DNA of 64,000 nucleotides, taken from NCBI GenBank assembly GCA_944389235.1, contig CALXLO010000001.1, positions 26,956 through 90,955 of the forward strand. Direction: 5' to 3'. Below, piece after piece: positions 46,423-48,245 of the stretch. The stretch comes from an uncultured Alphaproteobacteria bacterium. Lineage in GTDB: Bacteria; Pseudomonadota; Alphaproteobacteria; Rs-D84. The position numbers were made by a program, and so were the translations under genes. Position 1 is the stretch's first letter; every line of letters begins with the position of its first letter. Below the pieces are notes generated by a model that was not told where the DNA came from, searched no databases, and was given only the letters and a program-made list of their open reading frames with translations.

Positions 46423-48159
46423 TTATTTACCCGTGTGATATGTTTGACCGTTGTATTCCAGGTTTATCCCATCACCCGAACCAGATTCCAATATGCCATA
46501 ACACATACCGCCATTATAACCAATGTGTATCGCCGGCGACGATAACTTTTCACTATATAATGGTATTACTAACCCACTGCCTGTACGCAATGTTGTAAAC
46601 CCCAGCCCACATAACTGGCTGCATACACCGTCTGAACTTTGATTATACCCATCATTACACACAGTCGTATATTCACAATTATTCCCATAATACACAGTAC
46701 TGCTGACTGGAACACGATTGCCACCAGTGATACTTTGTTCACTACATGTCGCATAACACCCACTTTGACCAATATTACCACCCGCAGAATTTGGATATGC
46801 ATCTGGACATGCGGGACATGTTGAACCACTGATATAATGGTCTGCACTGGCTGATGTAGGTTTATCCAGTTCTTGTTGGCAGTTTGCGTTGTTTGTACTG
46901 CATCCGCTTTTTATTGTGCCATCGCCAGTACCAGCACTGTTGGAATACGCAACATAATTACATGCTGACCCAGAACATGCTTTACACGATACACTGGCAC
47001 ACCCACTGGGCTTAGCACATGCTGTTTGACCTCCAGTCCATGCACGCGATTTGGTATTACTATAACACGATGTTATGCCACCGGTATTACCATCTGGTGA
47101 ATTTGGGTACCCCGATGGACAGGATTTGCAACTATTACCATCTTTGTAATACCCTGCTGCACATGATGTAATGGTTAATGTACCACCACTGCACGAGCCC
47201 CATGAACTGCACCCGGTGCATTGCGACGAACTGGTTGCACCGATTGGTCCACTGGTATGATTACCCGTACACTGTTGTTTAGCACCACTGATTGTACCTG
47301 CGTATGCATGTGCATTACTTAATTCCGTGCTGGTTGGATTGCGTGAACATGATTGTGATAAGTCTGTCGCACTGATACTGGTGCAAGATAGACACCTGTT
47401 ACCAGCACTGAGACCATTTAAGAAATACCCTGCTGCACATGATGTAATGGTTAATGTACCACCACTGCACGAACCCCATGAACTGCACCCAGTACATTGC
47501 GACGCACTGATTGCACCGATTGGTCCACTGGTATGATTACCAGTACATTGTTGTGTTCCACCTGTCATTGTACCAGCGTATGCATGTGCATTACTTAATT
47601 CCGTGCTGGTTGGACTGCGTGAACATGATTGTGATAAGTCCGTCGCACTGACACCTGTACATGCCGGACAGCTGCTGCCGCTTTTATAATATCCTGATTT
47701 ACAAGATATGCTGATTGAGCATGTTGATGCCGGTGCATCGCACGAACCACCGTAATAGTATTTTCCACTGGTTGATGAACTGCCGTGGGTACAGGTCGCA
47801 TTAGCTGGGCATCTCTGCCGTGTACATGCCCTGGTGCAGGATTTATAGCATTGGGTTATGACTTTTGACCCCTCGGCAGAATTTGGATAGTCAGACGGGC
47901 ATGGTTTGCAAATAACTGTGCCGCCACCATAACTGCCCGCAGGGCAGATGACAAGAATAGGGGGACGGTCACCACCACACAAAGTTTTGCATAAGCTTTG
48001 GGATGCCGCGCAACATATCGGAGAACCAAGTTCAACTGGGCATGCAACAGTACCTGCAGGACAACCATCACCGCCGACTTGGGTGATTGCATATAATGGA
48101 AATGTTGATAATGCACTAAACAAAAACACCAAAACCAAACGGTGGTTTAGATTCGGCAT
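46423..48159 (-). CDS. Secreted cysteine-rich repeat protein with ephrin-receptor-like/furin-like (GCC2_GCC3, VSP-like) CxxCPxGY repeats
   Basis: Signal peptide (LVLVFLFSALSTFPLYA) and about 52 Cys in 578 aa (hand count). Repeated motifs are CKPCPSDYPNSAEGSKVITQCY, CKSCPSGYPNSPDGNTGGITSCY, CPACPDAYPNSAGGNIGQSGCY and C-AAGY(F/Y)-x5-7-C-x-SC. The track ORF starts at TTG 48162; the first ATG is at 48159. No purine-rich SD is visible. Confidence 0.75.
   Translation of the reverse strand: MPNLNHRLVLVFLFSALSTFPLYAITQVGGDGCPAGTVACPVELGSPICCAASQSLCKTLCGGDRPPILVICPAGSYGGGTVICKPCPSDYPNSAEGSKVITQCYKSCTRACTRQRCPANATCTHGSSSTSGKYYYGGSCDAPASTCSISISCKSGYYKSGSSCPACTGVSATDLSQSCSRSPTSTELSNAHAYAGTMTGGTQQCTGNHTSGPIGAISASQCTGCSSWGSCSGGTLTITSCAAGYFLNGLSAGNRCLSCTSISATDLSQSCSRNPTSTELSNAHAYAGTISGAKQQCTGNHTSGPIGATSSSQCTGCSSWGSCSGGTLTITSCAAGYYKDGNSCKSCPSGYPNSPDGNTGGITSCYSNTKSRAWTGGQTACAKPSGCASVSCKACSGSACNYVAYSNSAGTGDGTIKSGCSTNNANCQQELDKPTSASADHYISGSTCPACPDAYPNSAGGNIGQSGCYATCSEQSITGGNRVPVSSTVYYGNNCEYTTVCNDGYNQSSDGVCSQLCGLGFTTLRTGSGLVIPLYSEKLSSPAIHIGYNGGMCYGILESGSGDGINLEYNGQTYHTGK
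47150..47662 (-). repeat. In-frame tandem duplication (276-bp period, 2 copies, roughly 90% identical) inside the Cys-rich gene
   Basis: taccctgctgcacatgatgtaatggttaatgtaccaccactgcacga... occurs at 47150 and again at 47426. It encodes two 92-aa modules (...ATDLSQSCSR(S/N)PTSTELSNAHAYAGT...CTGNHTSGPIGA...CTGCSSWGSCSGGTLTITSCAAGY...). Confidence 0.9.
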
Positions 48160-48245
48160 CAATGGGGATAAAAATGTGGCGGATTTCTGGGGGTGGGATG
48201 TTTAAAAATATGCCGAATCTAAACCACCCTTTAGATTCGGCATGA
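48141..48245 (-). promoter_or_regulatory. Three-copy start-codon element (19-nt inverted repeat plus 14-bp hairpin) in the leader of the Cys-rich gene
   Basis: Copy A, at 48141-48159 on the minus strand, is ATGCCGAATCTAAACCACC (the gene's start codon plus 5.3 codons). Copy B, at 48210-48228, carries the same 19-mer on the plus strand. Copy C, at 48230-48243 on the minus strand, is ATGCCGAATCTAAA. B and C form a perfect 14-bp hairpin with a 6-nt loop, and B is also a 19/19 complement of A. Confidence 0.6.

Follow-up and report, generated by a model that had tools for sequence, protein, structure and literature searches.

DNA inversion is a familiar source of phase variation in cultured gut bacteria. 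The promoters of fimS in Escherichia coli (FimB/FimE), of the Bacteroides fragilis capsules (global invertase Mpi) and of mpl in Mycoplasma penetrans are all invertible, with sizes of 314 bp for fimS and about 135 bp for mpl. Tyrosine-recombinase core sites, as arm-spacer-arm, include loxP (13-8-13), FRT and dif (11-6-11). In the cwpV switch of Clostridioides difficile, which uses the tyrosine recombinase RecV, a 195-bp segment containing neither a promoter nor an open reading frame (ORF) lies between imperfect 21-bp repeats (Emerson et al. 2009, PMC2784873). In its OFF state a stem-loop with a poly-U stretch forms where the left inverted repeat meets the invertible region; in the ON state it is gone (PMC2784873). 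A further class, the partial intergenic or gene-altering invertons, has one repeat inside a gene and one outside, so that inversion gives the coding sequence a different 5′ end (Milman et al. 2023, PMC9881135; Chanin et al., PMC10028968). The examples are mostly long, shufflon-like domain swaps in cultured isolates (PMC9881135, PMC10028968). Here we describe an element in a 64,000-nt stretch of DNA from an uncultured alphaproteobacterium of the order Rs-D84 (GCA_944389235.1, contig CALXLO010000001.1, positions 26,956 to 90,955; hereafter the window, whose own numbering is used throughout). The element lies where the gene for a cysteine-rich (Cys-rich) secreted protein begins, and is probably an unusually small site-specific DNA inversion switch (inverton).

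An earlier reading of the window, made from the sequence only, had reported that the start of this gene occurs three times. The 19 nt ATGCCGAATCTAAACCACC that open the annotated coding sequence on the minus strand (48159–48141; copy A) recur on the plus strand at 48210–48228 (copy B), and their first 14 nt recur once more on the minus strand at 48243–48230 (copy C). We find all of these to be exact, and the interval of 50 bp between the 19-nt inverted repeats (48160–48209) is as that reading described it. With up to three mismatches allowed, the 19-mer has two matches in 64 kb against 0.03 expected, a number that none of 100 shuffles reached, and the exact 14-mer is confined to the three copies in the window. 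A repeat search extended the inverted repeat to 31-nt arms at 87% identity (48129–48159 / 48210–48240) and detected a perfect 14-bp palindrome with a 6-nt centre. What the sequence-only reading had overlooked is that every copy is followed by a hexamer, CCACCG/CCACCC or the complement GGGTGG, and, beyond it, by a second arm. Each copy accordingly belongs to one of two complete 34-bp sites with a 14-6-14 layout, which their asymmetric spacers show to be oppositely oriented. Written 5′ to 3′ on the minus strand, with the cassette in brackets, the locus runs ...AAAAATTC ATGCCGAATCTAAA GGGTGG TTTAGATTCGGCAT (ATTTTTAAACATCCCACCCCCAGAAATCCGCCACATTTTTATCCCCATTG) ATGCCGAATCTAAA CCACCG TTTGGTTTTGGTGT...

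Site 1, on the promoter side (48210..48243, minus strand), reads ATGCCGAATCTAAA-GGGTGG-TTTAGATTCGGCAT; its arms are the perfect palindrome found by the repeat search. Copy C forms the outer arm (48243–48230) and copy B the inner arm (48223–48210), with the spacer at 48229–48224. Site 2, on the gene side (48126..48159, minus strand), reads ATGCCGAATCTAAA-CCACCG-TTTGGTTTTGGTGT. Here copy A, with the annotated ATG, provides the inner arm (48159–48146), the spacer is at 48145–48140, and the outer arm (48139–48126) is degenerate, matching 8 of 11 positions of the arm consensus ATGCCGAA and encoding part of the signal peptide. Codons 1–7 of the annotated ORF fall within site 2 and its inner arm. The repeated ‘start codon’ would be mainly the outer end of a recombinase-binding arm, doubling as codons 1–5 of the product because the site sits within the signal-peptide coding sequence. 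Between the sites lies the 50-bp invertible cassette (module M2, of a type we call T/S; 48160..48209). Its minus strand starts with ATTTTTAAAC, a T-run straight after the site-1 hairpin, and its plus strand carries a Shine-Dalgarno (SD) sequence, GGGGA, at 48164–48168 and an ATG at 48174–48176. The segment that inverts, comprising the inner arm of copy B, the cassette and the inner arm of copy A, is 78 bp long (48146..48223), and the window holds this one pair of sites only. The segment is thus bounded by inverted repeats (19 nt exact, 31 nt at 87%), each lying within a full 34-bp site.

Inversion of this segment is seen in natural populations. By means of contigs encoding exactly the upstream phospholipase-D (PLD) family protein (48550–50130) we fetched the locus from ten other assemblies (L001–L010), which are 98–99.6% identical to the window. 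The cassette has the orientation of the window in L002, L004, L005 and L008, and is flipped in L009, which is of the same species and comes from another metagenome (also L141). Flipping in silico the 78 bp that separate the two spacers of L008 yields L009 with 0 mismatches in 183 nt; without the flip there are 44. The inner-arm alleles AATCTAAA and AAAACAAA (triplets TCT/AAC) trade places between the two assemblies, as a crossover in the spacers predicts. The new junction in L009 has just 8 nt in common with the alternative, and the flipped arrangement therefore cannot be an artefact of the assembler (de Bruijn graph). The crossover must lie within or next to the spacers, in the 12-bp core AAA-CCACCG-TTT. 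The cassette inverts in nature, and the inversion site that the sequence-only reading had offered as its alternative for 48160–48209 is borne out by both orientations in independent assemblies of one species. The gene call in L009 (7888–8037 of that contig) opens an ORF at the ATG of copy C and runs through the flipped cassette. A look-up via the HU gene yielded another four contigs whose ends fall within the switch, one of them directly after GGGTGGTTT; such an end is expected where reads of both orientations coexist, and repeats alone can break assemblies too.

Three further variants of the locus were observed. A 19-bp deletion in L003/L138 (about 48196–48214 of the window) takes away the T-run together with the end of the site-1 inner arm, and may represent a naturally locked allele that does not invert and has lost the terminator. 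In L006, position 48486 of the window is joined to 46714, with about 1.77 kb deleted, including the whole switch and most of the gene, and about 120 nt at the junction are unmatched. In L007/L140, an NCBI contig of a metagenome-assembled genome (MAG), the sequence past site 2 is the reverse complement of the contig's own upstream sequence; we set this fold-back end aside as a probable assembly artefact of a 24-nt inverted repeat in that strain.

We suggest the following operation of the switch. A recombinase encoded in trans would exchange strands in or next to the spacers and so flip the 78 bp. In the orientation of the window, a transcript from upstream would meet the site-1 hairpin and its U-tract, and the ATG at 48159 would stand without an SD sequence (OFF). 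In the flipped orientation the T-run would be moved away and GGGGA-N5-ATG would stand before the gene and in frame with it, giving a product that begins MWRISGGGMFKNMP(N/K)(L/T)NHRLVLVFLF... (ON). On this basis the window would be in the OFF state and L009 in the ON state, and flipping of the cassette probably switches the Cys-rich secreted protein on and off.

Features of the sequence on both strands agree with this scheme. The site-1 RNA hairpin (copy C with copy B) has a predicted energy of −20.2 kcal/mol and is flagged as terminator-like on both strands; it is followed by AUUUUUAAAC in the orientation of the window and by CAAUGGGG when the cassette is flipped. As in cwpV, a hairpin with a U-tract thus stands at the junction of repeat and cassette in one orientation only, and it is likely to be the terminator of the OFF state. 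The absence of an obvious SD sequence, remarked on in the sequence-only reading, is correct, the ATG at 48159 being preceded by UUUUUAUCCCCAUUG; it is missing there because the SD sequence and the probable real start codon lie on the other strand of the cassette. After flipping in silico, GGGGA-N5-AUG starts a product MWRISGGGMFKNMP..NHRLVLVFLFSALSTFPLYA whose frame is that of the signal peptide, and the ORF of the flipped state is also open from the ATG of copy C. The 11-codon plus-strand mini-ORF MPNLNHPLDSA* (48210–48245) is present as that reading had it. We observe in addition that, in the orientation of the window, the SD-ATG of the cassette opens a 23-codon ORF on the plus strand (48174–48245), MWRISGGGMFKNMPNLNHPLDSA*, which includes the mini-ORF and ends in the site-1 palindrome, with a T-run after it.

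The same design is found at other loci. Inversion in silico places an SD-like G-run 4–6 nt before an in-frame ATG in the window and L004, L023 (GGGAGGA), L028, L037, L056, L058, L059 and L116. One locus, L082, a paralogous locus in MAG SIG50 with the spacer polarity of the window, is assembled in the ON orientation: an upstream TATAAT promoter and GGAGAGA-N5-ATG precede an ORF, MLRKIGKILIQNMPKKNHRLFTT..., that is in frame with a signal peptide and continues into a Cys-rich protein. Its paralogues L045, L048 and L107 are OFF. With L082 included, the in-frame SD-ATG arrangement is present in nine fused loci. Fixed upstream promoters are clear in the relatives L011, L058, L059, L082 and L107. In the window, a weak candidate judged by eye is TTGCAA-N17-TAAAGT (48457–48429). 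The 87 bp upstream of site 1 (48244..48330, minus strand) end in TATAGA-N12-ATG, the ATG being that of copy C. Placed as an alignment row beside homologous modules and compared with L082 and L040, this stretch appears to be a decayed, immobile copy of the module (M1), with ATGCAATAAAGCGTAAAATTTACGC as a fossil site and TTTTTATTAAAAAATCCCAGATTTTCGCAG resembling a cassette. Its TATAGA is a candidate damaged −10 element, and may be one in that it resembles a deletion-damaged form of the −10 of L082.

The paired sites belong to a family. A scan of one genome per species with the pattern ATGCCGAANNNAAACCACC gave, besides chance matches in unrelated taxa, genuine sites in about 19 species-level MAGs, several of which have more than one. 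The MAGs that bear sites are labelled as uncultured gut Alphaproteobacteria or Candidatus Enterousia, and many of the sites are at contig ends. Enterousia falls within the uncultured order Rs-D84, and genomes of this order are mostly below 1 Mb (PMC12306168). A simple site finder returned 74 sites, which form 30 adjacent pairs of opposite orientation; 632 kb of control loci gave no pair. The gap between paired sites is 50 bp in 19 of the 30, 51 bp in seven and 49 bp in one, and the centre-to-centre distance of 84 bp would amount to eight helical turns. The core AAA-CCACCG-TTT is nearly invariant over the 74 sites, with the positions of the CCACCG spacer kept at 68–74 of them. A 118-bp module can be aligned over 16 loci (14 reference MAGs, the window and L004), and the T-run holds the same position in 15 homologous modules. 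Among JGI (Joint Genome Institute) metagenomes the core pattern of the family found three real contigs and the core of the window cassette none. Viral contigs gave seven chance matches, none with a second arm and hence no link to phage. In the library that we searched, the literature citing Rs-D84 does not mention this inverton family, and phase variation is not its subject.

Cassettes of the family are of two types. Those of the first type carry a strong promoter, TTGACG-N17-TAAAAT, and the inner-arm ATG follows 12 nt on (L013, L019, L021, L043, L066, L089 and L108). In L066 such a cassette lies between two divergent genes for secreted proteins, and in L043 and L108 it faces one secreted-protein gene with a site and a T-run behind it. 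Those of the second type have a T-run right after the upstream palindromic site on one strand and, on the other, a G-rich SD sequence and, 4–6 nt behind it, an ATG with about 12 codons (in many loci MQKSGIFSKIKT). The cassette of the window, with the plus strand CAATGGGGATAAAAATGTGG..., is of the second type. Three loci (L013, L021 and L089) have three alternating sites that chain both types, in the order site, promoter cassette, site, second cassette, site. There, four states could arise from two independent inversions, and the outer sites, being direct repeats, could allow excision of everything between them. In L043, L086 and L033 the outer arms of a pair are complementary to each other and so are the inner arms, as though the spacer of a single palindrome had received a cassette that brought its own inverted ends; this may be a clue to the spread of the modules.

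In their 14-6-14 layout the sites fit a tyrosine recombinase: arms and spacer lie within the 11–14 bp and 6–8 bp of the core sites of these enzymes, and the asymmetric spacer is common to both partners. A serine enzyme, cutting at a central dinucleotide, or a hairpin-dependent mechanism is also compatible with what we see. The enzyme must act in trans. A crude recombinase motif regular expression returned nothing in 384 kb of Rs-D84 DNA, and IS200 TnpA, RAYT and Piv queries returned nothing in a search that had no positive control. Two nearby proteins without a Pfam match (330 and 462 aa) have no recombinase-like relative in the PDB, and a look-up with the AcrB-like protein returned no record.

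Several observations weigh against an inversion switch of this kind. Pfam identified no recombinase among 33 ORFs of the window, nor was one found in the 10 kb past its end. Homologues of XerD, FimB and Hin were absent from 384 kb of Rs-D84 DNA around 36 switches when searched by phmmer, a search in which an XerD homologue in L051 (E = 7e-57) served as positive control. With 78 bp, the invertible segment would be no longer than the shortest distances over which known recombinases bring sites together in cis. This locus is ON-oriented in one assembly only, and at least six assemblies that span the switch are OFF; likewise all 16 aligned cassettes and the three JGI contigs are OFF-like, leaving L082 as the sole ON reference locus. 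The N-terminally extended ON protein is absent from the three matches in a database of 5.8 billion proteins. The U-tract of this species (AUUUUUAAAC) is shorter than those of its relatives. The promoter candidates of the window are all weak, and the TATAGA before copy C lacks the conserved final T. Finally, about half of the genes in the window use AGGA/GGAG/GGGGA SD sequences and about half also have no clear one, so that a missing SD sequence is weak evidence on its own.

Other explanations for the repeats were considered against this background. The sequence-only reading had put forward an RNA switch, in which the DNA stays as it is and translation depends on the partner of the central copy: pairing with the upstream copy would leave the start codon free, and pairing with the start region would sequester it. 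The region folds far better than its shuffles (−53.35 kcal/mol, z = −6.49). Both pairings can indeed form, the long-range one being the minimum-free-energy structure and the local 14-bp hairpin the first to form in a growing transcript. The long-range pairing is present in both orientations, however, and so cannot tell the two states apart. The DNA itself is found in both orientations, and the 50-bp DNA spacing and the spacer are conserved whatever the direction of transcription. The same sites flank promoter cassettes in relatives, and an RNA mechanism fits poorly there because one site lies upstream of the promoter, and so outside the mRNA. Across 47500–49000 the element matches only plant microRNA hairpin models of Rfam, below threshold, as a consequence of its being a long hairpin; a weak c4-a1b1 match (48383–48436) is outside the element. 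We find no Rfam family and no conserved RNA structure in the transcript that is independent of DNA rearrangement, and regard an RNA switch as the primary mechanism as very unlikely. A classical invertible promoter in the style of fimS or the Bacteroides capsules, with ON meaning that a promoter in the cassette faces the gene, comes closer. Sister cassettes in relatives have clear promoters (TTGACG-N17-TAAAAT-N12-ATG, the ATG lying in the arm), the centre of the window cassette (GGCGGATTTCTGGGG) is homologous to them, and the ON orientation would be the same as in the scheme proposed above. Against it, the window cassette reads ATAAAA at the −35 position and TGGGAT at the −10 position, with no σ70-like site inside and no −35/−10 pair on either strand of 48160–48209, and by sequence it groups with the SD/terminator cassettes (GGGGATAAAAATG, with the T-run on the other strand). 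For the window a promoter cassette is thus unlikely.

It might also be that the inversion is incidental, short inverted repeats flipping through template switching or homologous recombination and the palindromes being unprogrammed terminators or operators. The empty recombinase searches, the likeness of palindrome and T-run to an ordinary bidirectional terminator and the single orientation of nearly all assemblies would suit such an account. It does not accommodate a 34-bp site with an invariant asymmetric spacer that about 19 species have preserved, in 30 pairs spaced 50±1 bp apart, nor the in-frame SD-ATG that appears upon flipping at nine loci, which is unexplained without selection on both states. 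The crossover between L008 and L009, moreover, falls in an 8-nt shared core, too short for homologous recombination. We therefore hold incidental inversion to be highly improbable. Shuffling at an expression site (a shufflon), as in Mycoplasma vsa and Ureaplasma mba, would join one promoter and N-terminus module to different silent genes bearing the same site. Other strains do show a different N-terminal coding region after the same upstream module (L001, L003, L004 and L005; L155/L167 versus L156), and the sites are multi-copy in each genome; the window, with its single pair, does not suit this idea, and we give it hardly any credence. By BLAST the differences are same-locus allelic replacements of 0.4–1 kb, with no junctions to distant loci, which speaks against the shufflon. 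An inverton carrying SD sequence, start codon and terminator remains the reading that we favour.

The gene that the switch would control (46423..48159, minus strand) encodes 578 aa from the ATG, or 579 aa from a TTG at 48162, of a secreted protein with the signal peptide MPNLNHRLVLVFLFSALSTFPLYA. Cysteine makes up 9% of the protein, which has no useful relative in Pfam (E up to 5) or in a PDB sequence search. Within the gene, a 276-bp tandem duplication (47137–47403 / 47413–47679, 88% identical) provides two copies of a Cys-rich module. Assemblies from other samples break in these 276-bp repeats, which there blocks the plsX-anchored route to the switch from the gene side. The N-terminal domain varies between strains (L001, L003, L004 and L005 against 47700–48125 of the window; L155/L167 against L156). 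The replaced stretches of 0.4–1 kb are bounded on both sides by homologous sequence at the same locus, as BLAST shows, and look like the result of diversifying selection on an exposed part of the protein. Upstream and on the same strand is the PLD-family gene (48550..50130, minus strand; Pfam PLDc_2, E = 2e-34). Elsewhere in the window we note chromosomal genes of the virB8, virB9/CagX and virB10/TrbI types (28159–32957, minus strand), the rest of a type IV secretion operon not being nearby. Two further large secreted proteins are encoded near the switch, at 50261–52501 (plus strand; Ser/Thr-rich with a Cys-rich C-terminal half, no Pfam match, 721–746 aa across strains) and at 58374–61085 (minus strand; with Chlamydia PMP repeats). 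No switch sites were found beside either of these two genes.

A broader reading, which we offer tentatively and consider possible rather than probable, is that Rs-D84 gut Alphaproteobacteria, with genomes under 1 Mb, possess a modular system that spans the genome and consists of the shortest invertons known. Promoter cassettes and SD/start-codon/terminator cassettes of 50 bp, interchangeable between identical 34-bp palindromic sites at a fixed centre-to-centre spacing of 84 bp (eight turns) and in places chained for two-bit control, would govern hypervariable Cys-rich surface proteins and be driven by a recombinase or hairpin mechanism unlike the usual invertases. An unusual enzyme is proposed because none of the switches has an Xer-, Fim- or Hin-like gene nearby and because 78 bp is too short for ordinary synapsis. 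The compactness, with 78 bp flipping and sites 84 bp apart, raises the mechanical question of how synapsis takes place across a 50-bp loop. A single cassette here would unite transcription termination, the ribosome-binding site and the start codon, with the recombination site partly translated as the N-terminus of the product. A switch acting on strain-hypervariable Cys-rich secreted proteins in uncultured human and animal gut symbionts with reduced genomes would suggest that antigenic or adhesive variation is central to their lifestyle. On the practical side, gene callers would mis-start such genes, assemblies break at the sites, and inverton finders tuned to longer elements may miss them.

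The cwpV switch is the closest described mechanism. Both have an invertible segment ahead of a surface-protein gene, which in cwpV follows an outside promoter and here may do so, a junction terminator, putative here, in the OFF state only, and a recombinase that is not adjacent. Unlike in cwpV, 50 bp lie here between 34-bp palindromic sites, making the element about four times shorter, one site is inside the coding sequence, and the invertible segment is not free of ORF parts, since the cassette brings an SD sequence and a start codon. Also unlike cwpV, the element belongs to a multi-copy modular family with promoter cassettes at sister loci. With fimS, the capsule promoters and mpl it shares predicted ON/OFF phase variation of surface components between short inverted repeats, and an organisation in which many loci use one kind of site and a distant recombinase; those elements are several times longer, however, and the window cassette has no recognisable promoter. 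The sites are built like those of loxP, FRT and dif, from two inverted arms and a short asymmetric spacer that sets orientation and is shared by partner sites, but show no similarity in sequence to dif or lox that is visible by eye and, unusually, the spacer with its AAA/TTT flanks is their most conserved part. As in the partial intergenic invertons, a repeat inside the gene means that inversion alters the 5′ end of the coding sequence, although here the exchange is confined to the first codons, the SD sequence and the terminator T-run, and the hosts belong to an uncultured order. Gene-start inversions are already a recognised class (PMC10028968), and what is new here is a very compact inverton that combines SD sequence, start codon and terminator.

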